Below are positions 24,847 to 61,567 of a stretch of 64,000 nucleotides of DNA, one piece after another. Source of the stretch: Aureispira anguillae (GTDB lineage Bacteria > Bacteroidota > Bacteroidia > Chitinophagales > Saprospiraceae); NCBI RefSeq assembly GCF_026000115.1, contig NZ_AP026867.1, forward strand, positions 2,649,716-2,713,715, given 5' to 3'. How positions within the stretch are numbered: the first letter of the stretch is position 1; each line of letters starts with the position of its first letter. The translations under genes were made by a program, and so were the position numbers. The notes beneath the pieces are model-generated. The model searched no databases. It had not been told where the DNA came from and saw nothing but the letters and a program-made list of their open reading frames with translations.

Positions 24847-24933
24847 GGTCAAATACAAAACAGTATTTATACGATCCACGTACCCTTTCTTTTTATTAAT
24901 TAAACTTTATGACTATTATCTTATATAATTAAA

Positions 24934-44163: not shown

Positions 44164-44312
44164 TTAACGCCCTTCTTAGTTGAATCATTAAATCCCAACG
44201 AATTTCTAAATCCTTTTGGAGCATAAAGCATCCCGAATCTTAAAATCAATCTAAAATTCGGGATCGTTTATTGTTAACAGCCCAATTGATCCTAATTAGC
44301 AATTTAGGTTTA

Positions 44313-45515
44313 TTAAATCAATGCCATTTTTTTGTTAAGTACCTCAGCATAAAATGCTTCTATTTGTACGCAAAAGTTATCCATAGAAAATTTTTGCAGG
44401 GCAATAGATTGACCGTTTTTGCCAATTTTTTCCCTTTTTGCAGGATTTGTTATTAAATCGCCAATGCTATCAGACAACACTTTGATGTTTTTTGCAGGAA
44501 CAAAAATGACCTCCTCTTCATTTTCGGGAATTTCATCAAACCCAGAAACCTCATTCAAAATCACAGGGCATCCCACAACCATACTTTCAATAGCAGAAAA
44601 CCCTAGCCCCTCTTTATAACTTGGCAAAACAACTAGATCAGATGCTTTTAATAAATCAGGCATATCGTTTCGTTGAACTTCCGTAATAATGCATTCAAAA
44701 TCTATATTTTTTGTTTTTTCTCTAACCTCTAATAGATATTCATTGGAGCCTGAGTTGGTGCTTCCAGCCAAAACGCAAACTATCGTTGATTTTAATTCAG
44801 ATGGCAAGGCTTGAATGGCATTTAGCAAATCCAACTGCCCTTTCCTTGGAGAAAATCGACTGGGGCAAGTTATGACCATCTTTTCATTTGAAACATTCAT
44901 GCCTTTTCTCCCCCTTTCTCTTTCCCCACTTGAAAATAAGTCTACATCTACAGCCGCAGCAATTCCAAAAACTCCCGCTTTGCACCCATGATTTTTGGCA
45001 ATATCAATATAATATTGACTGATCTGAACTAACCCATCCAAAGGCAAATGATAGATAAATTGTGACCGAGCAATTCCAAAAGGACTATCTTCAGTAGACA
45101 TTTCACAGGTGGTAGCCACTAGTTTGGGGCGAATCGCTTCAGGCATTCCCTTTATTGCAATTGAAGCAGACAATATGGTATCATGACTCAAAGCATGAAT
45201 AATATCAACCTTATTATTGACAATCGTTTTATGAATCGCCTCTGACCTAGAAAACATAGCCCACTCCCATCCAACATAACCATCTATACTGCCAAAAGTA
45301 GTACCTAAAATCGTAATAGATCCTCCAGTTTCTTCGATTTGTTGGATTACTTTTTCCCTAGGAGCCTCTGCGGTAATTAAATGCACTTTCATGGCTAACT
45401 TAACCAAAGAAAGTGTCAATACTTCTGCAAAAGTTTCTGCTCCTCCTGTTAACGGAGGCATTGTTGGAGCAACTACACATACCGATAGTGCTTTTCCCGC
45501 TTCAAATGATTTCAT
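44313..45515 (-). CDS. Glycosyltransferase family 4 (GT-B, group 1)
   Basis: 400 aa. C-terminal domain PSRFSPRKGQLDLL...DLVVLPSYKEGLGFSAIESMVVGCPVI is the E-x7-E GT4 retaining-GT signature region. Confidence 0.8.
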   Translation of the reverse strand: MKSFEAGKALSVCVVAPTMPPLTGGAETFAEVLTLSLVKLAMKVHLITAEAPREKVIQQIEETGGSITILGTTFGSIDGYVGWEWAMFSRSEAIHKTIVNNKVDIIHALSHDTILSASIAIKGMPEAIRPKLVATTCEMSTEDSPFGIARSQFIYHLPLDGLVQISQYYIDIAKNHGCKAGVFGIAAAVDVDLFSSGERERGRKGMNVSNEKMVITCPSRFSPRKGQLDLLNAIQALPSELKSTIVCVLAGSTNSGSNEYLLEVREKTKNIDFECIITEVQRNDMPDLLKASDLVVLPSYKEGLGFSAIESMVVGCPVILNEVSGFDEIPENEEEVIFVPAKNIKVLSDSIGDLITNPAKREKIGKNGQSIALQKFSMDNFCVQIEAFYAEVLNKKMALI

Positions 45516-45525
45516 TTTTTATATT

Positions 45526-46422
45526 TTAACTACTAATTCTTCTAAAAAAATAATTTCCTTCGCATACTTGTTGCTCTGGTTGATAGCCCAAATTCTTCAT
45601 CAAAACCAAGATGTCTTGATGACTTACATTAGCCTTTTTGAGTAGTGATTCTTTTATTTCAAAGATCAAACAACGTGGTTCAAATTTTTGAATAGAATTA
45701 CTCATTCCTTTTAGAATATCAAACTCAGCTCCTTCGGCATCAATTTTTATAACATCTATCTTATTTAGACTACTCTGTTTAATCCAGTCATCAAATTTGT
45801 GCACCTCAACCTCTTGGATAATTGCACCATTGCCAAAAAAAGATCGTACCGCAGCATCGTGTACGCCCCAATTTTTATCCCCATAGAGCGATAATGTTTC
45901 CGATTGATTTCCAAGCGCAATTTTTTGAAGGCTTATTGCAAGATGATTTGCTTTGCTGTTCTCTATAATTCTTTTTTGAGAATCGTTTGTCGGTTCAAAG
46001 GCGATTACTTGCCCCCCTCCTAACGATTTCAATTTTTGGGCAGCAACCAAAGAATGTATGCCTATATGAGCCCCCACATCAATAAAAACATCGTTAGGCT
46101 GCAACTCATTTCGGATAAGCGCTAAAGTTTGAGGTTCGTATTTCCCTGTAAAATAAATGCAGCGTTGAATATTATCTCTAAGGTCTAATGTCAAGTTTAA
46201 CCCCAAACGATTTGCTTTTACGATAGGATCAACATTCCACCACTTTGGTTGTAGTGACAAGGGCAATGGTTCTGAGATAAGATTAGGATCAACCAAACGC
46301 ATACAAGCACGTTCATAGCCCTGACTCGTCATTGAATCTTGTGTTAAAATTTTGGCGACATAAGGTCTAAGATATCGGATTGGTACTAATTTCTCCGCTT
46401 TTATTAAGGTGCTCAATTTCAT
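45526..46422 (-). CDS. FkbM-family methyltransferase
   Basis: 298 aa. DVFIDVGAHIGIHSL (SAM motif I) and IDVIKIDAEGAEFDILKG are typical FkbM. Confidence 0.75.
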   Translation of the reverse strand: MKLSTLIKAEKLVPIRYLRPYVAKILTQDSMTSQGYERACMRLVDPNLISEPLPLSLQPKWWNVDPIVKANRLGLNLTLDLRDNIQRCIYFTGKYEPQTLALIRNELQPNDVFIDVGAHIGIHSLVAAQKLKSLGGGQVIAFEPTNDSQKRIIENSKANHLAISLQKIALGNQSETLSLYGDKNWGVHDAAVRSFFGNGAIIQEVEVHKFDDWIKQSSLNKIDVIKIDAEGAEFDILKGMSNSIQKFEPRCLIFEIKESLLKKANVSHQDILVLMKNLGYQPEQQVCEGNYFFRRISS

Positions 46423-46452
46423 TATTGTATCTTCCTTTTACTACCTATTGAA

Positions 46453-47649
46453 TTAAATTTTTAATGCACAACCCCTGCTTTCGAGTTTATTAACACGTCT
46501 TTTGATTTCAATAATATCACTGACAATACCACAAGTACATTTTACTTGCTCGTGCACCACTCCAAAGTCATCACTCAATACAAATCCAGGATAACTAACA
46601 GCAGTAGGGTCTGCAAAACTTAAAATCCCTAATTCTCCAGAGGCTTGAACGGTTAAATTTTGGGGATTTCTGGCTCTTGCATAAAGCCAAGGCGGACAAT
46701 GTTTTTTGTGGTGCTTGCATTCAAAAATAACTGTATTTAGCTCGACCATATTGTAAACATCTCGCACATACTCCTCGTTGAGCAAACCAAATGCTTCGAC
46801 AATTCGTTGCGTCAACTCCTTGCGCTCAACAATATCCCCTTGCCGAGATTTCCAACCTCCCATTGTCACAATTAAACATCGGTCTAGTAAATTTAAATTT
46901 CCTGTTTTGGCAAGCTCTTTGGTTGTATCCAAAACTAAAGCAGGAGGTCCAATAATGACAATCTTTTTGCCATTCTTATCTTGATCTACCTTTCTCAAAT
47001 CACTCACCAACTGTTCTACTTTAAATTCATCATTTGAAACATAAAATTTACTAGGAAAATAAAGTGAAACGCCTGTGATTACGTACGAAATCCAAAGGTG
47101 TTTAATCTCTTCAAGCTTGGGGCTAAGACAATATAAATCCAGATTAGATTGAGGAATTTCAAAAACCTCTTGAACCCCCGCTGCAACGGAAGCAAAAAAA
47201 CGCATTAATGTAGTATTATCCCTAGGCACCTGAGATACCGTCCCTTTTGTCCCACTACTTGTCGTAAGCATAACACTATCATCCCAGTTAGACTGTACAA
47301 ATTTTAAGTCATTTTTAAATATCGCAGAAGGTAAAAGAGGAATTTTATTTAAATCGAATTCATCCTCCTCTATATTAAAATTCATTCTTTTACAGTAATC
47401 TGCATAATAAGGGTTGCTATTAATATGATGACGAATAATTGCTTTCAAAAATTCTGTTAACTTCTTCCTGCTTTTATTAAAATCTTGCAAAAAAACATCA
47501 TCTGAGGATAGAAATTCATCAATCGCTGATATACCACCAACCTTATCTTCTACTAAATTATTTGATTTTAATCCCATTATTACTATTTTTTTTATTATCA
47601 ATATAAGTGCGGTATTGTGGATATTTATCTTGAAACCAATACTGCTCAA
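46453..47649 (-). CDS. luxE: LuxE-family acyl-protein synthetase (fatty acid--protein ligase)
   Basis: Colinear with Photorhabdus/Vibrio LuxE: MLTTSSGTKGTVSQVPRD (TSSGTxG), TMGGWKS, VELNTVIFECKHHKKHCPPWLYARARNP, SYPGFVLSDDFG, RRVNKLESRGCAL. An alternative start is the ATG at 47577. Confidence 0.8.
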   Translation of the reverse strand: MSSIGFKINIHNTALILIIKKIVIMGLKSNNLVEDKVGGISAIDEFLSSDDVFLQDFNKSRKKLTEFLKAIIRHHINSNPYYADYCKRMNFNIEEDEFDLNKIPLLPSAIFKNDLKFVQSNWDDSVMLTTSSGTKGTVSQVPRDNTTLMRFFASVAAGVQEVFEIPQSNLDLYCLSPKLEEIKHLWISYVITGVSLYFPSKFYVSNDEFKVEQLVSDLRKVDQDKNGKKIVIIGPPALVLDTTKELAKTGNLNLLDRCLIVTMGGWKSRQGDIVERKELTQRIVEAFGLLNEEYVRDVYNMVELNTVIFECKHHKKHCPPWLYARARNPQNLTVQASGELGILSFADPTAVSYPGFVLSDDFGVVHEQVKCTCGIVSDIIEIKRRVNKLESRGCALKI

Positions 47650-49057
47650 GATTCGGTCTTAAAGAGTAATACCTGCCCATATCCGACCATGGTCTTTCAA
47701 TGCTTACGAGCCTTACCATTGGATGCATTCCGTGCATTCCATCGTGCGTAAAACCTGATCGAAAAATACGAGACCACCCCAGTTCAACTAATCGACAAAT
47801 CCCATTTGACGCCCATTCATCTCGATAATCTTTTATAATCGACCACGGGTAAACACTTAAGGTCTGATTGTCTCTATTAAAATGTTTTGAAATAGCACTC
47901 AAATCATCTACAGGATGTATAAATATAGTTCTGGTCAGAGGATGATTAATTTCGTTTGCTTCTTCTTCATCCATTACCACAATTGCCCAGTCGTCTCCGT
48001 TTTCGACATTTAACCCTACATAATTTGCTTCCAAAAGAGAAATAGAACGGTTAGCTAAGACATCAATGTTTTTATTTAAAAAGGGGACATTTTTGGAAAA
48101 AACTTTAAAGTATTTTTTTAGTTCTACCAAAAAAGCATCTAAATCACCTTTTACATAGGCTCTTTGTGTATTAAAACAGGCTTCTTGATCGTAATACGAA
48201 CAATCTTCAATCAATCTAAAAGCAGCCTTTTCCATATCACATTGATTCAAGTCTATCGCACTAGCACTCCATCTTGGTCCATATTCTGCAAAAGGTACAT
48301 TTGCTGGTACCTTTTTCTTTATAGCTTCTACGGCACTTTTTCCTCCCCATACACAAACAGAGTCCGAGGCATTAATAAATGCGGTTCCTATCTCATCATT
48401 TTGATGCCAATACCCAAGGGATAAAGATCTTGTTATTGGATGATCTGGGTCTGCTTCAATAAAACATTGAACAAAACCTATTGGTGTTACAGGATCACGG
48501 CTGGGAAGTTTTGCAAAATTTCTGTTTTTTGTCATGATCCCCCGCAAAAGGCTGTAGATAGATGCCAATGGGAGATTTCCTACAAGATAATGCAAGGCTA
48601 AGCCCCTTGGGAAAGCACGCACGTATGACATCTGGGTAGGAATCCATTCGTCAAAAATCCTTTCATTACCAAACTCAGATTCAATTTGGTCATACATATG
48701 GAAACGTTGCATCATAAAATCCCCAATTGTCTTATAATCTCCCTCTATCACAATATCAGAATACTGTGTAAGTAGCGGAGCATAAGTTTCTGCCATTTTC
48801 CTTCCTTGCAAGGCAGATTGATCCCAAAGGTTTCCTACTTTATTTAGAAAAATAGCAATGTCAGAAGTTGTTAATTCTTGTAACTCTTTCGCTATTTTTT
48901 TTCCTTCTTCCAATACCAACTCTAAATCTTTAGCTGTAATTTTTGGCATTCTTATCTCTATCCCACTATCGTACCTAAACGTTACCCGCTCCTCATCCTC
49001 AGAAGAGAGGTAATATTGTTTACCATTAATTATTTTAGGCAAATCGATTGATTTCAT
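47558..49057 (-). CDS. luxC: LuxC-family acyl-CoA/acyl-protein reductase (fatty aldehyde-forming)
   Basis: 499 aa. [77 protein letters not shown] and [25 protein letters not shown] match LuxC block by block. Confidence 0.85.
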   Translation of the reverse strand: [499 protein letters not shown]

Positions 49058-49068
49058 AATTGATGTTT

Positions 49069-49623
49069 TCAGTTTTTAAAATATTTTTGAACAAAGCTTA
49101 ACAGGTCTAGACAAATATCTGTTGCATAAGCACTTTTGTCATTTTGCCTCCCTGACAGTAGGTGAATTCTTTGGGAAACACCAAAATTGATTCCTGCTTG
49201 CATGTCAGTGTCATGGTCGCCAATCATCCAACATTCAGAAGCTTTTTTATCAAAATCAATACAAGCTTGTTCCAGCATTCCTGTTTGAGGTTTACGACAA
49301 AAACAGGCATCTTCTGCCGTATGAGGGCAGTAATAAAATTTTATTTGATCGTTAGAAAGTTGAAGTGATTTTTGAATATAACAATTTGTATTTTCAACAA
49401 ATGTTTCTTCTATTAAACCACGACTGATTGGGGACTGATTTGTAACAACAGCAATCGGTATCCCCATTGAAGCAATAAATTGTAAAGCTTCTACCGAACC
49501 AGCAACAAATTCAATCTCATCAGACTTTAGAATATAAGGTTCCTTATGTTTCAAAATAACACCATCTCTATCGATCAGCAGTAGATTGGGTGGAGGGTTA
49601 TTTTTATTGAATAACGTACGCAT
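49069..49623 (-). CDS. gmhB: D-glycero-D-manno-heptose 1,7-bisphosphate phosphatase-like HAD-IIIA hydrolase
   Basis: 184 aa. LLLIDRDGVI (DxD nucleophile), AVVTNQSPISRG, CFCRKPQTGML (Zn-binding Cys-rich loop of GmhB), MIGDHDTDMQAG. Confidence 0.75.
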   Translation of the reverse strand: MRTLFNKNNPPPNLLLIDRDGVILKHKEPYILKSDEIEFVAGSVEALQFIASMGIPIAVVTNQSPISRGLIEETFVENTNCYIQKSLQLSNDQIKFYYCPHTAEDACFCRKPQTGMLEQACIDFDKKASECWMIGDHDTDMQAGINFGVSQRIHLLSGRQNDKSAYATDICLDLLSFVQKYFKN

Positions 49624-49633
49624 TGAATTATCA

Positions 49634-50164
49634 TTAATTTGAAGGATTTAATTCGTCCGATAAGCGTTTTAACACATCGGGAATATGGGATGGGAATGCA
49701 ATTTTTTCAGGCAAATGATTTATATCAAACCACTTGACCTGCCCTATTTCTATTCCATCTGGCAAAGCAAAAAAATCACCCATTGGTTCAGCGGTATAAT
49801 AGACACAAACATTCTCACCATAATCACTATGATCCGTAGGTTCCATCCAAATACCATGATACTCCTTAAGTTTGACCTTTATTCCAGTTTCTTCAAACAC
49901 CTCTCGAATAGCACAATCTTTAGGGTGTTCATTCCATTCACAATAGCCCCCTGGAATATCCCAGAAGCCATCCCATGGAGCAATCAACCGTTTCACCATT
50001 AACACTTTATTCTTATCTAGCACTAATGCTCCAGCGCAGCACCTTGGGTTTCTCCAAAATTCTGTATGACATTGAGAACACTTATAGGGCAACTCTTTGT
50101 TAGCAGGTGCTCCACAGTTTGAGCAAAAATTCATTTTATCTATTTTTTTTAGCAATAGCCTCAA
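49634..50164 (-). CDS. NUDIX hydrolase with N-terminal zinc ribbon
   Basis: CSNCG...CSQCH ribbon, then Nudix box GGYCEWNEHPKDCAIREVFEETGI. An alternative start is the ATG at 50134. Confidence 0.7.
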   Translation of the reverse strand: MRLLLKKIDKMNFCSNCGAPANKELPYKCSQCHTEFWRNPRCCAGALVLDKNKVLMVKRLIAPWDGFWDIPGGYCEWNEHPKDCAIREVFEETGIKVKLKEYHGIWMEPTDHSDYGENVCVYYTAEPMGDFFALPDGIEIGQVKWFDINHLPEKIAFPSHIPDVLKRLSDELNPSN

Positions 50165-50900
50165 TCGCTAGGTTTAATTTTGAAGAGTCATTGGGGAATC
50201 GTAAAAGGTGGACATCAGGAAGCGTTTCGAAAACAGTACTTGTTCTATCGGTTGCCTGAAAAATTTCTTCAAACCCAGCTTGCTTTAGCAAATTGGTCAG
50301 CATTGTTCGTGAAAGTAGACTTTTATGCTGTCCCCACTGATGCGAAAGGCGGTTAATAAATCTTGCTGAACGCATTCCATCATCGGGCCAGCGATGAATT
50401 TTTGAATCCTCCAAAACATCGTGATCCATTTCTGCCTGTTTTCCCATAATGATAAGTTCAGCAATGTTCTTTGCATCTGGGCAAACAATTCTAATTTTTC
50501 CTCCAGGAGCCAAAACTCGATAGCATTCTTTTAGTAAAAAACAAATATCATCATAGTAAAAATGCTCGATGATATGCTCAGCAAGAATCGCATCAACACT
50601 ATTGTCTTTGAGGGGCAGTTTTAAAAGTAAATTTACAGGATATACATTCTTACCCAATCGGTGGGTATCAAAACCAATCCATCCATCTGCAACCGTAGTT
50701 CCCGAACCAAGGGCAATATTAACTTGGTCTAAAGACGCTAAATGTTTTTCTAATTTTCGTACTTTTATTTGATTCTTAAACAACCGATATAGTTGTTTCG
50801 GAAAGGACAAAAATTCTTTTACTAGATCTTTTTTCGTTAGTGGCACAAATCCCCAATCATCCTTTTCATCAACTCTCCAATTTGGTTCTCTAGTTACCAT
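50136..50900 (-). CDS. Class I SAM-dependent methyltransferase
   Basis: 254 aa. IALGSGTTVADGWIGFD (motif I-like) and RVLAPGGKIRIVCPD (motif post-II). Confidence 0.65.
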   Translation of the reverse strand: MVTREPNWRVDEKDDWGFVPLTKKDLVKEFLSFPKQLYRLFKNQIKVRKLEKHLASLDQVNIALGSGTTVADGWIGFDTHRLGKNVYPVNLLLKLPLKDNSVDAILAEHIIEHFYYDDICFLLKECYRVLAPGGKIRIVCPDAKNIAELIIMGKQAEMDHDVLEDSKIHRWPDDGMRSARFINRLSHQWGQHKSLLSRTMLTNLLKQAGFEEIFQATDRTSTVFETLPDVHLLRFPNDSSKLNLAIEAIAKKNR

Positions 50901-51637
50901 AAATCTGCTTTTCTATGTGGCATTAAATCGATTAGCTTATCCAATGAGTCTACAGAAAACGTAGGCATTGGGATGGAGTTTAATGCCAAATTATTGTTCC
51001 CAATATAAACCGTTTTGTACCCTCTATTAATGGCAGGTAACATATCAGCCTCATAACTATTTCCAACAAATAGGACAAAGTCTTTAGGTGTTAAATTGAT
51101 TGTTTCCTCCAATTGCTTAAATACATTAGATGAAGGTTTTCGCCAGCCACATTCACTAGATAAAATGATCTCATCAAAATAGCCTCCTAATTGATGGGTC
51201 TCAAAGACTTTATTTAATAAAGACTTAGGGATTGCTGTATTTGAAAGGGCTATAATTTCTCCTCCACTCTCCTTTAAATCTTTTAGCAATTCTCTTGCTC
51301 CCTCCAAAGGAGTCAAATAAGTAGTTTCGGCTCCTCCAAAAAGCTGCCAAGCTACTTCTTCCAATATTTCTAACGAAATATTGAGTTTAAAATGATCGAG
51401 TGTATTTTGCAGTATCGTACTAGCAGGGATTTGGTCATCTGACAATCGAAAGTTTTCTTTCATCAATTGATCAATGCCATAATACAGCAATTGGGTCAAT
51501 GATTTTTCATCCATCCCCGTTTTTTCAATGAGCGCTTTGGGCAGTGCTTTTAATTCGGGCATTGCTTCATCAACTAACGTTCCTCCCAAATCAAAAACCA
51601 CGATATAGCGCCCTTCTGTGAAATTGTATTTATTCAT
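50894..51637 (-). CDS. HAD-IA family hydrolase/phosphatase
   Basis: 247 aa. VVFDLGGTLVDE (DxG motif I), ALSNT (motif II), VGNSYEADM (motif IV region). Confidence 0.7.
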   Translation of the reverse strand: MNKYNFTEGRYIVVFDLGGTLVDEAMPELKALPKALIEKTGMDEKSLTQLLYYGIDQLMKENFRLSDDQIPASTILQNTLDHFKLNISLEILEEVAWQLFGGAETTYLTPLEGARELLKDLKESGGEIIALSNTAIPKSLLNKVFETHQLGGYFDEIILSSECGWRKPSSNVFKQLEETINLTPKDFVLFVGNSYEADMLPAINRGYKTVYIGNNNLALNSIPMPTFSVDSLDKLIDLMPHRKADLW

Positions 51638-51651
51638 TGTTTATGTTTATT

Positions 51652-53347: not shown

Positions 53348-53414
53348 AAATTTTAGTTATTTATTTATAATAGTCCGTCCTATAGTGTTATGCACAGTTT
53401 TTAACAGACTAATG

Positions 53415-54104: not shown

Positions 54105-54110
54105 AAGATA

Positions 54111-54701
54111 TTATTTAGAAAGTCTTTTTCTTATTTCTGCGCAAATCACATGATGCAAGCAAACATGAATAGACTCTGTAACAGGCGTAATATATTCTTT
54201 CTCTGGTGTTGGAACGACTAAGGCGACATCGCATAATTTAGCAAATGTTCCTCCTCCTGCGCCCGCAAATCCAATTGTTTTGGCACCACGTGATTTTGCT
54301 AATTCAATAGCCTTTACAAGATTTCCAGACCATCCACTACCACCATGTACAGAAAACAGCACTAAAATATCATCTTTTTTAATCCATGGGTCCAACATTC
54401 CATACCAAGCATTTTCCCAATCTGTATCGTTGGTCCATGCTGTATGCGCACTATAATTACTAACTAAATCCAGTGTGCGAAACCCACCGTTGTCTCCTGT
54501 TGCATACTTTGCCAAATCAGCTACAAAATGAGCTGCTGTTGAAGCAGAGCCCCCATTACCAACAGAATAGATAACATTATCCGTTTTATGTACTGATAAA
54601 ATTAAATCTACTGCTTTTTGTACAGACTCTAAATCAACCTTTTGCATTGATTTAATCATTTCTTCGGTAGCTACTTGTAAGCTATTTTCTACTGTGTTCA
54701 T
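54111..54701 (-). CDS. gmhA: Sedoheptulose-7-phosphate isomerase (SIS domain, GmhA)
   Basis: 196 aa. VIYSVGNGGSASTAAHFVADL and ILVLFSVHGGSGWSGNLVKAIELAKSRGAKTIGFAG match GmhA. Confidence 0.8.
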   Translation of the reverse strand: MNTVENSLQVATEEMIKSMQKVDLESVQKAVDLILSVHKTDNVIYSVGNGGSASTAAHFVADLAKYATGDNGGFRTLDLVSNYSAHTAWTNDTDWENAWYGMLDPWIKKDDILVLFSVHGGSGWSGNLVKAIELAKSRGAKTIGFAGAGGGTFAKLCDVALVVPTPEKEYITPVTESIHVCLHHVICAEIRKRLSK

Positions 54702-54707
54702 CTTTCT

Positions 54708-55634
54708 TTATTTTAATTTAAATTCTTTTACTTTATTTACCCCTTCTGTTGAAACAGTTGTTTCGACGATTTTAAACTCAAGTTTTTTGAGCGCATTAAT
54801 CACTTGTGTTCGTGTTTCAGATTTTCCACTAATAAGTACAAACCCTCCTGCTCCTGCTCCAATTGCTTTAGCACCACTAGCCCCTTTCTCTATTGCAGTC
54901 TGTATAATGGTATCTATGGTATCTGTTGTTGCCTCTGGTAAGCGTTTACATTTTGCAGCCCAATGACGGCGTAAAATGTCACCAAACATTTCTCCATCTT
55001 TTAATAAAATTGCTTTTTCAACTTCTTCGACTGAAGCTGGACGAGAATCATCGGTTCCATCCACATAAGAAGCTCCTAGGCTTTTTAATATTTTGCTTGC
55101 GTTTCTGCGAATACCCGTTTCAACCAATACAAAATTGTGCTCAAAAAGATACGCTAGACCATCCAACAAATCATTGCGTTTTTTTACGCTTATCTCACCA
55201 TTGGAATTCGCTACCATTTCAACACAGCCCCCCACTGCTGACGCTAATTGATCCTGAAAGCCAACGGGTTGATTTAATATTTCTCGTTCCCACTTGTAGG
55301 CCTTCAATCCAATATCAAGAGGCGTTTCTATTTTTCCCTTTTTTAAAAAATTACTTGCTGCTACCAGAGCCACAGCCACAGCCCCACTCCCTCCTAAACC
55401 AGCGCCTGGGCTTACTTCTGATTTAATATTCACATTAAAATTGGGATGTTCTTTTTTAAATAAATCATTTAACTGCGTAGAGTCATGTTTTATATCTGTT
55501 CCTACCGAAACTTTGACTTTTAATTTTAGAGATACAGCCAAAAGATGCGCTCCTGATTTTAGATAACATTCAGGCAGGTCAGTCCCTCCTCCAGCTAGAG
55601 AAAGTCTCAGAGGAGCATAAAATTCTAAATTCAT
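54708..55634 (-). CDS. hddA: GHMP-family sugar kinase (D-glycero-D-manno-heptose 7-phosphate kinase-like)
   Basis: 308 aa. N-terminal APLRLSLAGGGTDLPEC and GHMP motif SPGAGLGGSGAVAVALV. HddA-like architecture. Confidence 0.7.
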   Translation of the reverse strand: MNLEFYAPLRLSLAGGGTDLPECYLKSGAHLLAVSLKLKVKVSVGTDIKHDSTQLNDLFKKEHPNFNVNIKSEVSPGAGLGGSGAVAVALVAASNFLKKGKIETPLDIGLKAYKWEREILNQPVGFQDQLASAVGGCVEMVANSNGEISVKKRNDLLDGLAYLFEHNFVLVETGIRRNASKILKSLGASYVDGTDDSRPASVEEVEKAILLKDGEMFGDILRRHWAAKCKRLPEATTDTIDTIIQTAIEKGASGAKAIGAGAGGFVLISGKSETRTQVINALKKLEFKIVETTVSTEGVNKVKEFKLK

Positions 55635-55695
55635 GGTTTAATTTTTAATCGTTAATCATCAACTGTGCAGCACTCATGCCATAATCAACAGAGTG

Positions 55696-56625
55696 TCATA
55701 ATAGCGTAAGCCAATTAAATGTATCCTCCTTTCTACCTTCACATATACCTAAATAAGTTGTTTGTAGTTTTTGGGTAATCGGTCCAACTGCCCCATTTCC
55801 AATATCAATTTTATCAATACTAAGCACAGGAGTCAACTCCGCCAATGTTCCTGTAAGAAATATTTCATCTGCCCAGTAAAGTTCTGTTCTAGGAATATCT
55901 CTTTCAACTACCTGAATCTTGAAATGAGATCTTAAGAGATTAATACAATTACTTCTGGTAATACTTTCTAGAATTCCAGCAGAAATTGGAGGAGTAATCA
56001 CTTGACCATTTCTAACCATAAAAATAGTAGCTCCAGTAGTTTCAGCTACCAAACCTTTATCGTTCAACAAAATTGCTTCATCATAACCGCCATTAAGTGC
56101 ATCAATCATTGGTAGTTTAAAGGATTGATAAGCAGCTCCTGCTTTTAGCAAAGGCGACATACTCAAATCATTCATTCTTCTCCATGAGCTAACACAACAC
56201 TTAATTCCCTCTTGAATCGAGGGACTACGTTCAACAGGAAAAGCAACAATATAAGCTCCATTCTTCACCTCGCCATAGCCCTCACCATATCTACCTTTTT
56301 CAACATATACAGTAGGACGTACATAAATATGCCCTTCTAATTTTAGCGCATTAATTAAATCTATGATTCCAGCCTTAAGCTCTTCTTTAGTAAAAGGACT
56401 AGCAATGCGTAGGATTTTAAGCGCAGAAAATAACCTATTTAGATGTTGTTCAAGAGAGATCAAAGCATGAGATCCATCTTTTTGTTGATAACAACGTATC
56501 CCCTCAAATATATTCGCTCCACGTGTCGCTAATTCTGACCAAACATGAACCGTAGCATTTTCCCAAGGTTCTACGTTTCCATTAAACCAAATTAGAGAAG
56601 GCTGTTCCTGTTTTTTCATAATCAA
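55696..56625 (-). CDS. ilvE: Fold-type IV PLP aminotransferase, IlvE-like (branched-chain amino acid aminotransferase)
   Basis: 309 aa. IWFNGNVEPWENATVHVWSELATRGANIFEGIRCY, VRPTVYV and ETTGATIFMVRNGQVITPP..GILESITR are colinear with E. coli IlvE. Confidence 0.75.
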   Translation of the reverse strand: MIMKKQEQPSLIWFNGNVEPWENATVHVWSELATRGANIFEGIRCYQQKDGSHALISLEQHLNRLFSALKILRIASPFTKEELKAGIIDLINALKLEGHIYVRPTVYVEKGRYGEGYGEVKNGAYIVAFPVERSPSIQEGIKCCVSSWRRMNDLSMSPLLKAGAAYQSFKLPMIDALNGGYDEAILLNDKGLVAETTGATIFMVRNGQVITPPISAGILESITRSNCINLLRSHFKIQVVERDIPRTELYWADEIFLTGTLAELTPVLSIDKIDIGNGAVGPITQKLQTTYLGICEGRKEDTFNWLTLL

Positions 56626-57646
56626 TTGGGTTTATTTTAATTCTACATTCTTTTTTTGCGGCTAAATAAGCCATTTCAACAAACTGACTCGCTCGAACAC
56701 CATCTATGCCCGTTCCCAATAATTCTCCTCCATTTAGCAGAAAATCTACAAAATGATTCCATTCATTTTTCCAAGATTTATCCCCTCCTCTATAATCAAT
56801 AACTTCTTCTTTGAATGGTCCATTCGGGTCCCGTTTTCCAATTCTGAGTCGTTGCACATCATAGCTTCCACCAAGACCATTTATCTCAACATAACCCATT
56901 GTTCCATACAACTCCAATCGGAATCGATTTCGCCATTGCGTTATAGAAGAATTAACGGTAACTGAAACGCCATCTGAGCGGTGGAACAATGCTGTTGCAG
57001 TATCTTCTAGAGGAGCGATTGGGAAAACAAGCGTTGCAACATTGGCAGAAACAGCCTCAAATTCTCCAACAAACCACCTAAAAAGGTCAATACAGTGAAT
57101 CCCCTGCTCCATTAGTTGTCCACCTGCTGTTATTTCTACATCTGAACGCCACTCTTTTTCGCAATTTTCTCTTCCGCAGATGCCATACAAAGCTCTTCCT
57201 GTAATCGGTTTTCCAATTGCGCCACTTTTTATTAATTCATTCGCCTTTATCATAGCAGGATGGTGTCTATGATTAAAGCCACATTTTAGGATGACCTTAT
57301 TTTCTGCTGCCAATTGCACTAATTTTTGAGCATCACTTGACTTTCTTGTTAGTGGTTTTTCACAAAGGATGTGTTTCTTATTCTTTATAGCCGCTTGAGC
57401 TATTTCAAAATGCACATTAGGGGGGGTACAAATAACCACAATATCTATTTCTTCATCTTCAATGATATTTTTCCAATGTGGTACTGCTATTGCGTTTGCC
57501 TTTTGTGCAACTATCTTTACCTGCGTTTCGTCAACTCCTGCTATTGACTTTATTTCCGTATATGGATTTTCTTGAATAGATAGCAGCCTACGATTAGCTT
57601 GTAATCCTGAACCTACAATACCTATTTTCATTATTTGTTTATTCAC
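56582..57646 (-). CDS. Gfo/Idh/MocA-family NAD(P)-dependent oxidoreductase (WbpB-like sugar dehydrogenase candidate)
   Basis: 354 aa. MKIGIVGSGLQANRRL Rossmann N-terminus, EKPL motif (ILCEKPLTRK), and a C-terminal alpha/beta domain. Confidence 0.75.
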   Translation of the reverse strand: MNKQIMKIGIVGSGLQANRRLLSIQENPYTEIKSIAGVDETQVKIVAQKANAIAVPHWKNIIEDEEIDIVVICTPPNVHFEIAQAAIKNKKHILCEKPLTRKSSDAQKLVQLAAENKVILKCGFNHRHHPAMIKANELIKSGAIGKPITGRALYGICGRENCEKEWRSDVEITAGGQLMEQGIHCIDLFRWFVGEFEAVSANVATLVFPIAPLEDTATALFHRSDGVSVTVNSSITQWRNRFRLELYGTMGYVEINGLGGSYDVQRLRIGKRDPNGPFKEEVIDYRGGDKSWKNEWNHFVDFLLNGGELLGTGIDGVRASQFVEMAYLAAKKECRIKINPIDYEKTGTAFSNLV

Positions 57647-58904
57647 AGCCTGGTTTTAAATAGATTAAGTTTGTGTTTTTCACTTCATTTTGTTCATACA
57701 AATGCCATAGATCCATCAAAATGTTTCCATTCATTGCCTCTGATATATCCTGAACACTTATTCCCTTCGCACATCCTGATTTTAGAATAAGAACGACATC
57801 TGCATTTTGGATCGCTCCGATTGCGGTATCAAAGAGTTCTATATTTAGCGCTGTTTCTTTGACCATTGGATCAAAGGCCGTTATCGCTGCCTTGTACTGA
57901 TTTAAATATTGAATCACTTGCAAGCCTGGAGATCTTCTAAGCGTATCAGTGCCTTCTGTATATACAAGCCCTAATAGTGCAACCCGCTTATTCTCTAAAG
58001 AAGTAAATGCTTCTATTCTCTTAAAAAGGGTATCAATTCGATCCTCATTAATAGCAATTACAGTGTCAAATAAGGAGGTTTTTTTATTGGTCTTGCGCCC
58101 TATTTCCTGCAAAGAACGAATATCTCTGGCAAGCGTCCCTCCACTAAACCATGGTCCAGGAAGAAGTGGCATTCTATTGCTAATTCTTTGATCCTTTTTC
58201 ATGATTTCAACCACCTGATAAGCATCTGCTTGCATCGCTACTGCTATATCCGACAATTGATTTGAAAAACTAATTGATGTTGCTAAAAAAGAATTTATGG
58301 CATGCTTTGCCAATTCAGCTGTCCTGAGGTCACACAAAATTGGATTCTTATCAATCGAGGAAAGTAAATCTGCAATTTCTTTGGTATACGATCTGTCATT
58401 GGCTCCAATAACCGTCATATCTGGATTTTGAAATTTCTCTATTGCTTTTCCAAGTTGCAAATTTTCAGGTATATATGCGATTTTACTTCCATTCCTAATT
58501 TGCGCATCAGTTAATAACTTTTCGGTTGTTCCAATTGGAACTTGAGAACTAATCATATAATTCTTTATCGGCAAATCAGATAGCTTTTGCATAATTGCCT
58601 CAATAGAATCTAAACTACATACATCATTTTCATCAATGGGGGTATCAATTGTTATCCATACATAATCCGCCTTTGCCAAGGCTTCTATGTCCGAAACAAA
58701 TTCCAACCTATTTGCTGAAATTCCTTTAGTGATTAGCTCATTTAAATTGGGTTCAAATAAGGGCGCTTTTCCCAAATTTAATTGATCGACCTTTTCTCTA
58801 TCTTCATCAAAACCAATAATATGTTGAAAACTTTCGGACAGGGCAGCAGCCGTAACACAACCTAAGTGCCATAAACCAACAATAGCTATAGTTTTATTTA
58901 TCAT
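57639..58904 (-). CDS. Nucleotide-sugar 6-dehydrogenase (UDP-glucose/GDP-mannose dehydrogenase family; WbpA/TviB-like)
   Basis: 421 aa. TIAIVGLWHLGCVTAAAL (GxGxxG), a central dimerisation helix, and a C-terminal UDP-binding domain. Confidence 0.8.
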   Translation of the reverse strand: MINKTIAIVGLWHLGCVTAAALSESFQHIIGFDEDREKVDQLNLGKAPLFEPNLNELITKGISANRLEFVSDIEALAKADYVWITIDTPIDENDVCSLDSIEAIMQKLSDLPIKNYMISSQVPIGTTEKLLTDAQIRNGSKIAYIPENLQLGKAIEKFQNPDMTVIGANDRSYTKEIADLLSSIDKNPILCDLRTAELAKHAINSFLATSISFSNQLSDIAVAMQADAYQVVEIMKKDQRISNRMPLLPGPWFSGGTLARDIRSLQEIGRKTNKKTSLFDTVIAINEDRIDTLFKRIEAFTSLENKRVALLGLVYTEGTDTLRRSPGLQVIQYLNQYKAAITAFDPMVKETALNIELFDTAIGAIQNADVVLILKSGCAKGISVQDISEAMNGNILMDLWHLYEQNEVKNTNLIYLKPGCE

Positions 58905-59884
58905 TCTTTTAGGTAATTTATCATTCTTTCTACTGCGATTTCAACCGCTTTATCTGAATTATTGGGAGGATTCCAACCTATTTTTTCAACTTTAGAGACA
59001 TCTAACTGAACAACGGGTTGATCTCCAGGCCAGCCTATTTTACCACCAGTATAATTATAATCAACCCCTGATAAGCCCAAGGCTTTTGTGACATAATTTG
59101 CAATGGTAATAATAGATGTCACTTTTGTATTTCCTAGATTAAAAATCTCTACTTGATGATCGTTTGGAATTTCATAATTATCTAATAACCACAAGATTCC
59201 TTTGATGCAATCCTCGACCAAAAAATAACTTTTTGCCTGCTTCCCATCTCCTAGAATAGTGAGTTGAGTTGGATCCTCCTTCAACCTTGTAATAAAGTCC
59301 CTTATTGCTCCACGAGACATACGATTTCCCAATACATTTCCAAATCGAAAAATCCAGCCCCTTATCCCAAATAGATTGGCATAAGAAGAAATAAAAGCTT
59401 CAGCAGATATTTTGCCAGCGCCATACATAGATAATGGATACAAAGGAGCACTACTTTCCGTAACCTTTTGTTGCGACAAATTTCCATAGACAGCCCCAGT
59501 ACTAGAAAAAACGATGTCCTTTATTCCTTCCGCAACCATTGCATCAAGGATATTTCGAGTACCATAAACAGCAGAGTCAATATCAATTCGTGTATTCTTA
59601 ATGCCAATAGGGATATTTGCATTCCCCGCTAAATGCCAAACTTGTTGCTGGGACACCATTGCTTTACGAACAATATTTTCATCTTGAATATCTCCTTCAA
59701 TAAAGTTAAACCGTTCTCTTTTTTTTGCCTTTTCTAACCATGCCTGATTAGCATTTGATAGATTATCCAAAACTGTAATTGTTCGTCCTGAATCTAATAA
59801 AGCATCTACTAAATGGCTGCCTATAAAACCTGCTCCTCCTGTAACAATTACATTGTTAGGAATTGACTTAGGAATTGGTATCAT
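58901..59884 (-). CDS. Extended-SDR NAD-dependent epimerase/dehydratase (WbpP/TviC-like)
   Basis: 327 aa. NVIVTGGAGFIGSHLVDALL and a YxxxK catalytic region (MYGAGK). Confidence 0.8.
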   Translation of the reverse strand: MIPIPKSIPNNVIVTGGAGFIGSHLVDALLDSGRTITVLDNLSNANQAWLEKAKKRERFNFIEGDIQDENIVRKAMVSQQQVWHLAGNANIPIGIKNTRIDIDSAVYGTRNILDAMVAEGIKDIVFSSTGAVYGNLSQQKVTESSAPLYPLSMYGAGKISAEAFISSYANLFGIRGWIFRFGNVLGNRMSRGAIRDFITRLKEDPTQLTILGDGKQAKSYFLVEDCIKGILWLLDNYEIPNDHQVEIFNLGNTKVTSIITIANYVTKALGLSGVDYNYTGGKIGWPGDQPVVQLDVSKVEKIGWNPPNNSDKAVEIAVERMINYLKE

Positions 59885-60543
59885 ACATTTATCTTTGTTG
59901 CTGCATTATCAAATTCTGCCGCAGTATGTTTGGACATTTCATGTACCGTGCATTTTTGGAGAATAGCTGGCGTAACAGTACAAATATGGGGTCTTCCGAT
60001 CGCTGCACTTGTAATAGCAAACACCGTTCGTATACTCCCCACAATAATTTCGGTATCACTTCCTACTTCATCAATCCAATTTCTGACGCTAGCTATTTGC
60101 TCAACAGGATCAGCTCCTTGGTCACTAATTCTACCAAAAAACAAAGAAACATACCTAGCGCCAGCTTTTGCTGCCATAATTGCTTGAGGTGCCATCATAC
60201 AAGCGGTTGCATTAATAGCATACCCCTCGTCACTTAATTCCTTAATGATCGGAAGCAGTGATTTTCCATCTGCATCAACAACAGGTACCTTTATTACTAT
60301 ATTCTCTCCTAAACTTGCAAACTTCTTTGCTTGCTTTAGAATACTCTCTCGATCTTTCCCACTAACTTGAATAGAAACGGGTGCTCCATTTGCTGCTGCA
60401 ACCATTTTAATAAGATGAGAATCCACATCACTAATACCTTGTTTTTTTATAATCAAAGGATTCGTTGTAATCCCCTCTCCAACTCCAATATTGAACCAAT
60501 ATTTAATGCTTTCAATATCACAACTATCTACAAAAAATTTCAT
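59881..60543 (-). CDS. Fructose-6-phosphate aldolase / TalC-type short transaldolase
   Basis: 220 aa. MKFFVDSCDIESIKYWFNIGVGEGITTNPLII and IVIKVPV (Schiff-base Lys) are colinear with FsaA/TalC. Confidence 0.8.
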   Translation of the reverse strand: MKFFVDSCDIESIKYWFNIGVGEGITTNPLIIKKQGISDVDSHLIKMVAAANGAPVSIQVSGKDRESILKQAKKFASLGENIVIKVPVVDADGKSLLPIIKELSDEGYAINATACMMAPQAIMAAKAGARYVSLFFGRISDQGADPVEQIASVRNWIDEVGSDTEIIVGSIRTVFAITSAAIGRPHICTVTPAILQKCTVHEMSKHTAAEFDNAATKINV

Positions 60544-60736
60544 ATTATATTGTTTTTATAATACTCCTTGGATTAGTTACACACTGCATTTTTGAGCCCA
60601 TAAAATAGTTTTCAATTTTTATGAACTAAAGCATGAACGCAGTAAAAGGCAAACTATGAGCAAAAGGTGTTCAATAATTATTCACAGTCAACCAACTAAG
60701 TCCTACGCAGTCTCTTACGGAGTAATCTTTTATTAA

Positions 60737-61567
60737 TTAATTTTTATTTGCGGCTTGTATTATTTCCCTAAAATCTGGCACTACTAAATCATCACCATCC
60801 TCATTCATTAGTTTCAGACATTCCCGTGTAGCAAATTCAAAATATGCCAAAGCAACTTTAGGGTTTCGATCTATTTTGTGCGATGCAGATTCTACAGGAA
60901 TTAACTGCACTTCTTTTTCTAAATTTTTGGCAAAAGAGATTGCCTTTTTAACCTGATTAAATGAAACCCAAGGATCACTGGTTCCCGCAATAAAAGAAAG
61001 TTTGCCTTTTATTCCTTTGACATCATCAAGGGTAGTTTCAAATGTTTCAAAGTTATTTTTGATACAATCCTCTATAAAACTTGCATTGATAGAATAGCCC
61101 AATACTTCAGCAGATGGATTTCCAGCAAAATATGCCTCGAATACATTTTCGTCAGATGCTTCTGTAAGGGTATGTCTTACATCTACCACTGGAGCAATAA
61201 ATACAGTATTTAATTCTTTGTCCAATGCTCCCAATGCTCTTAGAGTTGCTCTTGCCGACAAACTCATGGAAACAATGACATTACACTTTGTGAAATTAAC
61301 TGCACTTATGACATCTTCAACCTGCTTAGATAAACTTGAATCTGAAATCTTCCCTGAACTTTCCCCCACATGGTTTCTAAAATCCATACGGTAAACCTTA
61401 AACCCATTCTGAGTTAGAAAATAACTTAAAGAAAAAATACGTTTGGCAGTAATACCAAAAGCTGGGGTAATCAAGACACTCCCCTTACAATCCCCCTCAT
61501 TTGGCTTGTCCACTGTAAGACTGATAACTTCCCCATTAACTTCTATTATTTCTTTTTTACTGATCAT
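60737..61567 (-). CDS. luxD: LuxD-family acyltransferase (acyl-ACP thioesterase/transferase)
   Basis: 276 aa. VLITPAFGITAKRIFSLSYFLTQNGFKVYRMDFRNHVGESSGKI, IVSMSLSARATLRA (active Ser) and VDVRHTLTEA align with Vibrio LuxD (NGFHVFRYDSLHHVGLSSGSI, ASLSARVA, VNLRDTLEKA). Confidence 0.8.
   Translation of the reverse strand: MISKKEIIEVNGEVISLTVDKPNEGDCKGSVLITPAFGITAKRIFSLSYFLTQNGFKVYRMDFRNHVGESSGKISDSSLSKQVEDVISAVNFTKCNVIVSMSLSARATLRALGALDKELNTVFIAPVVDVRHTLTEASDENVFEAYFAGNPSAEVLGYSINASFIEDCIKNNFETFETTLDDVKGIKGKLSFIAGTSDPWVSFNQVKKAISFAKNLEKEVQLIPVESASHKIDRNPKVALAYFEFATRECLKLMNEDGDDLVVPDFREIIQAANKN

Follow-up and report, generated by a model that had tools for sequence, protein, structure and literature searches.

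A 64,000-nucleotide stretch of the genome of the gliding bacterium Aureispira anguillae (contig NZ_AP026867.1, positions 2,649,716 to 2,713,715), hereafter the window, contains a minus-strand operon of 19 genes (44313-61567) in which homologs of LuxC, LuxD, and LuxE are dispersed among genes for sugar nucleotide biosynthesis. It is best explained as the local version of an orphan biosynthetic cluster that is conserved and has spread horizontally. A check of open reading frames (ORFs) located all 19 codirectional genes, and Pfam and NCBIfam profile searches confirmed each of the 19 domain assignments made in a first, sequence-only reading of this DNA (Table 1).

Gene starts were refined from the gene calls of an identical Logan contig, which set the starts of the Gfo/Idh/MocA oxidoreductase (Gfo), aminotransferase, NUDIX hydrolase, and LuxE genes at 57631, 56619, 50134, and 47577. 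With these starts, adjacent genes overlap by 4, 4, 38, 11, 7, and 20 nucleotides (nt) or are separated by 1 to 67 nt, the sole exception being the 193 nt between the LuxD and transaldolase genes, which the sequence-only reading had already singled out as the only larger gap. The longest-ORF starts overstate the LuxC/LuxE overlap (92 nt versus 20 nt) and give overlaps of 29 and 8 nt at the methyltransferase/NUDIX and dehydrogenase/Gfo junctions, where the refined starts leave gaps of 1 and 7 nt.

A terminator-like hairpin follows the last gene, which encodes a family 4 glycosyltransferase (GT4), and an AT-rich noncoding leader or promoter region precedes the first. No Rfam match was found anywhere in the window, the upstream leader included, and a riboswitch or other RNA leader was dropped as a candidate. 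A sigma-70 promoter scan, which is unsuited to Bacteroidota, returned counts equal to the shuffled expectation. Neither flank has genes related to the operon: a lipoprotein esterase and BioA are encoded upstream, and downstream lie a small opposite-strand ORF and genes for a major facilitator superfamily (MFS) transporter, a cold-shock protein, KatG, CobW, and type IX secretion system (T9SS) cargo proteins. The MFS gene (42291-43526) was rejected as a cluster exporter because the hairpin and the opposite-strand ORF intervene and it is not conserved beside other versions of the cluster. The short junctions on one strand, the terminal hairpin, and the unrelated flanks thus bear out the earlier description of one tight operon.

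Table 1. Genes and boundary features of the operon, with LuxA homologs from related contigs; coordinates are those of the window unless a contig is named, and cut-offs are NCBIfam equivalog cut-offs in bits
Feature	Coordinates	Strand	Size	Matches and remarks
Gene 1, LuxD-like acyl transferase	60737-61567	-	276 aa	PF02273, 73 bits; NCBIfam LuxD, 82 (cut-off 420)
Gene 2, TalC/FSA-type aldolase	59881-60543	-	220 aa	PF00923, 137 bits
Gene 3, nucleoside diphosphate (NDP)-sugar epimerase/dehydratase-family short-chain dehydrogenase/reductase (SDR)	58901-59884	-	327 aa	PF01370, 160 bits
Gene 4, UDP-glucose dehydrogenase (UGDH)-family protein without the catalytic Cys	57639-58904	-	421 aa	PF03721, PF00984, PF03720 (three UGDH domains)
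Gene 5, Gfo/Idh/MocA oxidoreductase	56582-57631	-	349 aa	PF01408, PF22725, PF02894
Gene 6, branched-chain aminotransferase (BCAT)-type fold-IV aminotransferase, remodeled pocket	55696-56619	-	307 aa	PF01063; IlvE, 290 bits (cut-off 279)
Gene 7, HddA-like GHMP kinase	54708-55634	-	308 aa	PF00288, PF08544; HddA, 92 bits (cut-off 600)
Gene 8, GmhA-like SIS sugar-phosphate isomerase	54111-54701	-	196 aa	PF13580; TIGR00441 gmhA, 87 bits (cut-off 209)
Gene 9, HddC-like sugar-1-phosphate nucleotidyltransferase	53415-54104	-	229 aa	NCBIfam HddC, 59 bits, full-length (cut-off 300)
Gene 10, FkbM-family methyltransferase 1	52430-53347	-	305 aa	PF05050; TIGR01444, 92 bits
Gene 11, classical SDR, FabG-like	51652-52440	-	262 aa	PRK12748, 269 bits
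Gene 12, HAD-IA hydrolase, CTE7/YjjG nucleotidase type	50894-51637	-	247 aa	PF00702, TIGR02253
Gene 13, class-I S-adenosylmethionine methyltransferase	50136-50900	-	254 aa	Partial PF08241 match only
Gene 14, NudC-like NUDIX hydrolase, N-terminal Cys4 ribbon	49634-50134	-	166 aa	PF00293
Gene 15, GmhB-like HAD-IIIA sugar-bisphosphate phosphatase	49069-49623	-	184 aa	NF006506, 140 bits (cut-off 178)
Gene 16, LuxC-family acyl-thioester reductase	47558-49057	-	499 aa	PF05893, 216 bits; NCBIfam LuxC, 315 (cut-off 750)
Gene 17, LuxE-family acyl-protein synthetase	46453-47577	-	374 aa	PF04443, 207 bits; NCBIfam LuxE, 249 (cut-off 550)
Gene 18, FkbM-family methyltransferase 2, RfbT-like	45526-46422	-	298 aa	PF05050, 95 bits; PF05575, weak
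Gene 19, GT4 glycosyltransferase, the operon's only one	44313-45515	-	400 aa	PF00534, 102 bits
Terminator-like hairpin	44230-44264	-		15-pair stem, 49 nt 3' of the GT4 stop codon
AT-rich noncoding leader/promoter region upstream of gene 1	61568-62553	-	~985 nt	No family-matching ORF
LuxA homolog, contig L079	12775-13887			
LuxA homolog, contig L025	6253-7760			
LuxA homolog, contig L078	834-1889	-		
LuxA homolog, contig L026	11447-12418			

Recurrence of the operon across phyla

At least 11 distinct contigs, drawn from Cyanobacteria, Bacillota, Actinomycetota, and metagenomes, carry the entire operon with its gene order largely kept, which places the arrangement far beyond chance. A gene neighborhood search had been proposed as a check on the sequence-only reading; once run, it found the combination of LuxCDE and sugar genes in at least four phyla. 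The consensus order is LuxD-Tal-Epim-DH-Gfo-IlvE-GHMP-SIS-NTP-FkbM-(SDR)-HAD-MT-NUDIX-GmhB-LuxC-LuxE-FkbM-GT4, named as the genes of Table 1, with DH the Cys-less dehydrogenase. LuxD orthologs are the first gene of the corresponding operon in L034, L035, and L036, and the GT4 gene is kept at the operon end in L031, L032, L033, L040, and L042. FkbM methyltransferase 1 is found in all versions of the cluster and the class-I methyltransferase in most, while the SDR of gene 11 is optional, being absent from L031, L033, L042, and L045.

The cluster lies on metagenomic contigs (L032, L033/L036, L034, L040, L042, and L045), in a Bacillota metagenome-assembled genome (MAG; L031), and in the cyanobacterium Halotia wernerae (L035), where it is divided between two divergent operons. 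Versions with shuffled gene order occur in the Frankia symbiont of Coriaria (L025), on a 74%-GC soil contig (L079), and in a MAG (L021) that adds a MacAB-TolC pump and TylF/CmcI-type methyltransferases. The contigs carrying the cluster range from 30 to 74% GC, and recurrence over this range indicates a mobile, conserved unit. In A. anguillae itself (window 44001-62000), the GC content of the operon is 0.35 to 0.38 versus ~0.33 around it, and its GC skew is strongly negative, a shift that is compatible with horizontal acquisition and no proof of it. No published description of this cluster was found in the literature, in agreement with the sequence-only reading, which knew of no described pathway of this composition.

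Genes of the Wzx, Wzy, Wza, or Wzc type were not found among the window ORFs tested, nor were an initiating transferase, flippase, or polymerase, and the operon has a single GT4. The argument first made against a capsule or O-antigen locus, from the single glycosyltransferase and the lack of polysaccharide export genes, is supported on both counts. Variants of the cluster carry transporters of the MacAB-TolC, ABC-2, or FtsX types. Together, the single glycosyltransferase, the absence of polysaccharide machinery, and the efflux or ABC transporters and natural-product-type sugar methyltransferases of the variants favor a small exported metabolite.

Alternatively, the operon might modify an envelope polymer (lipopolysaccharide core, S-layer, or gliding-surface glycan), with transferases and exporters encoded elsewhere and LuxCDE providing a lipid anchor or acyl decoration. 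This would suit a lux-free relative of the sugar genes on contig L039, which sits in a multi-glycosyltransferase, glycan-type locus (three GT2, GT4, and DUF6311), and the ABC-2 transporters of L031 and L025, a type that also exports O-antigen and teichoic acid. Besides the missing polymer machinery, the compactness and self-sufficiency of a unit that passes between phyla whose envelopes differ greatly and the occurrence in L021 of a MacB-type efflux pump with TylF/CmcI natural-product methyltransferases make such a role distinctly unlikely. A function in anti-phage defense, prompted by a partial Pfam match to a GT4-conflict family, was also dropped, as PADLOC gave only a generic Nudix match.

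The sugar cassette and its aminotransferase

The gene 4 product aligns over its full length with UDP-glucose dehydrogenases, but the GGSCFPKD motif is replaced by SGGTLARD, in which the catalytic Cys has become Thr, and the NAD motif reads GLWHLG instead of GxGxxG (GxGYVG in UGDHs). Both changes are invariant among the cluster orthologs and are shared by 112 of the 120 best database matches, archaeal and candidate phyla radiation (CPR) proteins among them. The Cys-less UGDH-like subfamily defined by GLWHLG and F(A/S)GGTLARD is large, extends over Bacteria, Archaea, and CPR, and is annotated throughout as UDP-glucose 6-dehydrogenase. Since the Cys nucleophile is missing, a four-electron oxidation to a uronic acid is not expected, and a uronic acid product appears unlikely.

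Three loci carry this dehydrogenase without lux genes, namely those of a Dehalococcoidales MAG (L039), Lawsonia intracellularis plasmid 3 (L083), and a Rhizobium jaguaris plasmid (L084). Each of them combines it with Gfo, an SDR/epimerase, a GHMP kinase, a GmhB-type HAD protein, a TalC-type transaldolase, and a SIS protein, and L039 and L083 also encode the nucleotidyltransferase. Gfo is paired with the Cys-less dehydrogenase in every locus, the three lux-free ones included, and the epimerase of gene 3, whose best PDB matches are 3ehe and 8rdg, always directly precedes it. This coinheritance in the absence of lux genes indicates that genes 2 to 5, 7 to 9, and 15 are one recurrent cassette; the sugar genes would then form one pathway rather than two. 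The UDP-sugar tailoring branch and 2-acetamido-uronic sugar proposed in the sequence-only reading are not supported, given this coinheritance and the loss of both the Cys and GxGxxG from every ortholog.

The closest parallel to the cassette is the lincosamide amino-octose route of Streptomyces lincolnensis/caelestis, which uses the same set of families; the likeness is one of families and logic. There, LmbR, LmbN, LmbP, LmbK, and LmbO make GDP-octose and LmbM, LmbL, LmbZ, and LmbS convert it to GDP-lincosamide. In work by Wang et al. (PNAS, 2020), the latter four reportedly carry out 6-epimerization, 6,8-dehydration, 4-epimerization, and 6-transamination of GDP-octose, and the UGDH-like and Gfo-like Lmb proteins reportedly rework the side chain of the NDP-sugar and form no uronic acid. 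LmbR is annotated as a transaldolase, LmbN as an isomerase, LmbP as a kinase, LmbK as a phosphatase, and LmbO as a guanylyltransferase, followed by the epimerase LmbM, the "dehydrogenase" LmbL, the oxidoreductase LmbZ, and then the aminotransferase LmbS (PMC4351081, table 2; PMC12945683, table 1). Judged by Pfam families, the LmbR/N/P/K/O and LmbM/L/Z set is present in the operon and is coinherited in L039, L083, and L084. By name, no LmbL occurs among the 120 best matches to the Cys-less dehydrogenase. The two systems differ in their aminotransferases, LmbS/CcbS belonging to the DegT family and that of the operon to the fold-IV BCAT type (PF01063). The lincosamide route also has thiol (mycothiol/ergothioneine), NRPS-like condensation, and propylproline genes, none of which is in the operon, and Pfam detected no member of the LmbT, LmbV, LmbE, LmbC, LmbD, or LmbF families among the 19 genes. 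The operon in turn adds LuxCDE, three methyltransferases, NUDIX, HAD, and GT4, and its cluster is hosted by Bacteroidota, Cyanobacteria, Bacillota, and Actinomycetota.

The claim that the operon encodes a complete GDP-heptose pathway held at the family level: GmhA-, HddA-, GmhB-, and HddC-type proteins are all present, and these heptose enzymes are their best NCBIfam matches. It did not hold beyond that level, as all four score far below the equivalog cut-offs (Table 1). The operon shares with the GDP-D-glycero-alpha-D-manno-heptose pathway of S-layer, capsule, and O-antigen loci the same four families and the logic of isomerization, C1 phosphorylation, removal of the terminal phosphate, and nucleotidylation. 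It differs in its dedicated aldolase, which is always attached, and in its single-glycosyltransferase setting, which is not a polysaccharide locus. A standard GDP-D-glycero-D-manno-heptose pathway beside a separate UDP-sugar branch to a 2-acetamido- or amino-uronic acid, with one or both sugars joined to a LuxCDE-derived fatty aldehyde, alcohol, or amine, could draw on these family matches and on the superficial resemblance of the epimerase, dehydrogenase, Gfo, and aminotransferase set to WbpA/B/E-type routes. We consider it unlikely in view of the subthreshold heptose scores, the altered motifs in all orthologs of the dehydrogenase, and the linkage of that protein to Tal, SIS, GHMP, and GmhB (and, in two cases, the nucleotidyltransferase) in the three lux-free loci. 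Furthermore, the cluster lacks an N-acetyltransferase, and sedoheptulose 7-phosphate requires no dedicated aldolase.

Alignment of the gene 2 aldolase to 1vpx, 3r8r, and TacTal showed that the Schiff-base Lys and a Phe are kept, while the catalytic Glu is replaced by Gln (PVSIQV). The Gln is common to L035, L036, and L039, and the Lawsonia copy retains Glu. Gln is also found in fructose-6-phosphate aldolase (FSA), but the operon protein has Phe where FSA has its catalytic Tyr, and a short insertion follows the Schiff-base Lys. In L031, a class-II fructose-bisphosphate aldolase stands in for the transaldolase, which indicates that the conserved need is for an aldol step and not for a particular aldolase. 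A dedicated aldolase argues for a ketose phosphate outside primary metabolism, as with the octulose 8-phosphate made by LmbR, and an octose suits it no less well than a heptose, but the enzyme may instead supply extra sedoheptulose 7-phosphate. The use of a fatty aldehyde as the aldolase acceptor, giving a long-chain, phytosphingosine-like ketose, was rejected because GmhB and the HddA-type kinase need the terminal phosphate of a sugar.

The aminotransferase of gene 6 passes the IlvE equivalog cut-off. It was compared with an E. coli IlvE reference whose numbering reproduces all literature residues. K159, F36, G38, R40, Y95, R97, Y164, E193, and T257 of E. coli BCAT are retained, including all residues that bind the alpha-carboxylate, so that a fatty amine formed by this enzyme, as first suggested, is not the obvious reading. 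The hydrophobic side-chain pocket of BCAT (Y31*, W126, Y129, M107, and V109*) is not preserved. All cluster orthologs carry Arg at the positions of Y31 and G106, lack W126, and have Val, Thr, or Leu at that of Y129. The nearest structures are the fold-IV transaminases 6h65, which we take to be the Haliangium mixed-type transaminase, and 6gkr, the Thermobaculum enzyme TaTT. The pocket assignment, with Y31 as an O-pocket residue, follows table 2 of PMC8320979, in which TaTT is described as also active on an (R)-amine.

In all cluster versions, the aminotransferase gene directly follows those for the epimerase, Cys-less dehydrogenase, and Gfo, and lux-free L039 has an SDR in that slot. The two extra invariant Arg residues, one at the O-pocket position of Y31 and the other in the 105-110 loop, would fit an anionic (phosphate or nucleotide) substrate. 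We read the enzyme as probably aminating a keto-sugar nucleotide, in place of a reduction, with the new Arg residues binding phosphate. An anionic alpha-keto acid substrate is a serious alternative. An NDP-hepturonic alpha-keto acid was considered as well; it fits the retained carboxylate site and was dropped as weakened by the lack of Cys in the dehydrogenase.

The Lux triad within and beyond luciferase operons

LuxC of the operon scores 216 bits against PF05893 and 23 bits against the generic Aldedh family in Pfam. LuxC, LuxE, and LuxD all give full-length NCBIfam matches at less than half of the equivalog cut-offs, so that they are homologs and not equivalogs. LuxC is 31 to 33% identical to the Photobacterium and Aliivibrio proteins, and its YDQEAC motif, which holds the catalytic Cys, lines up with Y(D/E)QQAC in both. 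The Cys of the C-terminal RGCALK(I/M) motif of LuxE is kept in 16 of 16 aligned homologs, and the Ser (SLSAR), Asp (DPW), and His (SH) triad of LuxD is conserved among orthologs. By alignment, the predicted catalytic residues of all three are intact, and the profile scores agree with their initial identification as genuine Lux homologs rather than a generic aldehyde dehydrogenase or AMP-ligase.

No LuxA- or LuxB-like ORF was found in the 64 kb: the best tblastn match with Vibrio harveyi LuxA had an E value of 1.9 (the same query gave strong, specific matches in related loci), and Pfam found no Bac_luciferase domain among window ORFs of LuxA/B size. The absence of luxA and luxB from the window, as first reported, was thus reproduced by both searches. 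The operon has all three reductase families and their catalytic residues in common with luxCDABE; it differs in lacking luxA, luxB, and luxG in the window, in the dispersal of its Lux genes among sugar genes, in its scores, and in a LuxC clade shared with phosphonate and ribosomally synthesized and posttranslationally modified peptide (RiPP)-like clusters. A split bioluminescence system, in which LuxCDE would feed a luxAB pair at another site of the 7.6-Mb genome with the sugar genes as mere neighbors, could draw on the intact catalytic residues and on LuxA homologs within the related clusters L025 and L079. It is very improbable, given that luxA and luxB are absent from the window, the part of the genome that was searched, and that the Lux genes are interleaved and translationally coupled with sugar genes in a layout conserved across phyla and score so far below the equivalog cut-offs.

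The statement that LuxCDE is known only from luciferase operons was too strong. Our scans of genomes and soil metagenomes returned about 50 luciferase-less LuxC loci, with LuxE and/or LuxD adjoining in most of them. LuxC occurs in phosphonate contexts in Leptospira weilii (L030) and L070, next to phosphoenolpyruvate mutase and phosphonopyruvate decarboxylase genes, and in actinobacterial RiPP-like loci. In the L. weilii phosphonate-type cluster (L030, 6758-20299), LuxC is 58% identical to that of the operon and is accompanied by LuxE, LuxD, a MetRS-like gene, a cupin, a DAO-family oxidase, and a methyltransferase. In the RiPP-like loci (L037, 4366-12265; L038, 4476-12606; likewise L008, L009, and L048), a small ORF with F(V/A)PALLQDC at its C terminus precedes a pair of nitroreductase-like genes, ThiF, and LuxE-LuxD-LuxC, in that order, and L037 has an extra gene for a metallo-beta-lactamase-fold protein.

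A neighbor-joining tree, which carries no support values, divided the LuxC proteins of the sugar clusters into three separate clades, that of L025 and L079 being sister to true LuxC. The sugar genes of those loci are 42 to 55% identical to those of the window despite the split. Exchange of LuxC paralogs while the sugar genes stay this similar points to a generic, swappable LuxCDE module and suggests that the function of the module is generic.

LuxA homologs lie beside LuxE and LuxD within two actinobacterial sugar clusters, L079 and L025 (Frankia symbiont), and adjoin the Lux triad on the actinobacterial contigs L078 and L026; no LuxB partner is evident beside any of the four. The homologs of L079, L078, and L026 score 213 to 296 bits over the full length of the NCBIfam luciferase-alpha model (cut-off, 600) and at most 128 bits against any other luciferase-like monooxygenase family. 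These actinobacterial proteins beside LuxC, LuxE, and LuxD may be relevant to how the lux operon arose.

Systems in which LuxC- or LuxE-like proteins serve other ends bear on the substrate of the triad. In Vibrio cholerae O1, rfbKLMNO includes LuxC/LuxE-like genes for the tetronate side chain, and the LuxE/LuxC-like RfbL/RfbN have been proposed to act in tetronate synthesis. By analogy, LuxE and LuxC of the operon might act on a pathway-internal carboxylate, such as an amino acid that the IlvE-like enzyme makes from an anionic alpha-keto acid. The outcome would be a lipid-free glycoside in which the methylated higher sugar is linked to an amino-aldehyde or amino-alcohol. The full BCAT alpha-carboxylate site and two pocket Arg residues of the aminotransferase would agree with this, as would the presence of the same LuxC clade in phosphonate and RiPP-like clusters, settings with no obvious need for a fatty chain. 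LuxC/LuxE-like genes have also been reported in glycan islands, namely those for enterobacterial flagellin glycosylation (PMC4875605). Both these islands and the V. cholerae O1 rfb locus place LuxE activation and LuxC reduction within a sugar locus for a non-sugar substituent, but they contain an acyl carrier protein (ACP), lack LuxD, and serve polymers or glycoproteins; the operon has LuxD and no ACP and is self-contained with a single glycosyltransferase.

We judge a pathway-internal substrate unlikely. LuxD, whose only known role is acyl release from acyl-ACP, is kept with LuxC and LuxE nearly everywhere; the swapping of LuxC paralogs argues for a generic substrate; and in L025, L026, L078, and L079 the triad comes with homologs of LuxA, a protein that acts as an aldehyde monooxygenase in lux systems. 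Since LuxD is kept, the triad is most simply read as reducing fatty acyl groups. A parallel is offered by the LuxC-like reductase TabE, which functions in the biosynthesis of the tambjamine BE-18591 by making a fatty aldehyde that becomes an amine-linked alkyl tail (bioRxiv 10.1101/2025.08.11.669332). Unlike the operon enzymes, TabE stands alone as an acyl-ACP reductase, with no LuxE or LuxD, and its pathway is sugar-free.

A proposed pathway and its implications

Our best inference is that the product is a small O-methylated lipo-amino-heptose or -octose conjugate, neither light nor a polysaccharide, and that it is possibly exported. The aldolase would form a 7- or 8-carbon ketose phosphate, from which the SIS isomerase, GHMP anomeric kinase, GmhB phosphatase, and nucleotidyltransferase would produce an NDP-heptose or NDP-octose. 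On this one NDP-sugar, the epimerase, Cys-less dehydrogenase, and Gfo would then act in the manner of LmbM, LmbL, and LmbZ on GDP-octose, giving a keto and probably deoxy intermediate, which the IlvE-like enzyme would convert to an amino sugar. LuxD, LuxE, and LuxC would draw off a fatty acyl chain for reduction to the aldehyde. Aldehyde and amine might then be joined through an N-alkyl or N-acyl link, for which imine formation followed by reduction would be the natural chemistry and the optional SDR a candidate reductase. The two FkbM enzymes and the class-I methyltransferase would methylate the sugar, the single GT4 would transfer it to a small acceptor, and the NUDIX and HAD hydrolases would trim nucleotide or phosphate groups. 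The best NCBIfam match of the NUDIX protein is NAD diphosphatase, with the ribbon region inside the alignment.

The overall picture, in which a LuxCDE-derived fatty aldehyde meets an Lmb-like higher amino sugar to give a small O-methylated lipo-amino-sugar, is held tentatively, its chances being a little under even, and the individual steps are less certain. Several points weigh against it. Every chemical step is deduced from sequence, and the Lmb resemblance is a shared family set, not sequence orthology. The real LmbS is a DegT-family enzyme, and two cluster versions (L031 and L079) carry an additional DegT gene. The aminotransferase passes the BCAT cut-offs and keeps R40, Y95, R97, and T257, and its substrate may be an alpha-keto acid rather than an NDP-keto-sugar. 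No aldehyde-amine coupling enzyme was identified, and some versions of the cluster have no SDR. Because phosphonate and RiPP-like clusters have LuxCDE triads as well, the substrate may be a non-fatty carboxylate, and the LuxC tree is a neighbor-joining tree without support values. The sugar itself may be a heptose or an octose.

Elsewhere in the window, a stand-alone 539-amino-acid protein (20575-22194, plus strand) combines AprA N-terminal, winged-helix, and MT2-like domains (PF23525, 394 bits) with no polyketide synthase module. Two tandem ADP-ribosylglycohydrolase genes (23824-25872, plus strand; 215 and 240 bits) are flanked by genes for Reg_prop beta-propeller proteins (18750-19796 and 26683-27750). 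Two large proteins of 1,003 and 1,171 amino acids (4723-7734, plus strand; 31192-34707, minus strand) have T9SS C-terminal sorting domains, one together with DUF7619 and FG-GAP and the other with DUF7948 and SBBP domains.

Parts of the cluster have precedents; what is unusual is the LuxCDE module, a Cys-less UGDH in an Lmb-like cassette, and a retooled BCAT. If the proposed pathway is correct, a portable operon of 17 to 19 genes, found in four phyla, would make a new class of bacterial lipo-amino-sugar metabolite and would represent a biosynthetic, nonluminous use of a complete LuxCDE fatty acid reductase. A mislabeled "UDP-glucose dehydrogenase" subfamily, unable to make uronic acids, would partner Gfo and a dedicated aldolase in a lincosamine-like pathway, and a BCAT scaffold would have been retooled with two pocket arginines. 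The LuxA homologs beside LuxC, LuxD, and LuxE in related actinobacterial clusters would offer a concrete starting point for the unsolved question of how the lux operon originated. It is a long shot, but this cluster family could be the preluminous context of lux, in which LuxD, LuxE, and LuxC, joined in actinobacterial versions by the closest known nonluminous relatives of LuxA, built a lipid-linked amino-heptose or -octose and from which the luciferase operon descends; the amino sugar that receives the aldehyde would come from a widespread, unrecognized Lmb-like cassette with a Cys-less UGDH homolog.

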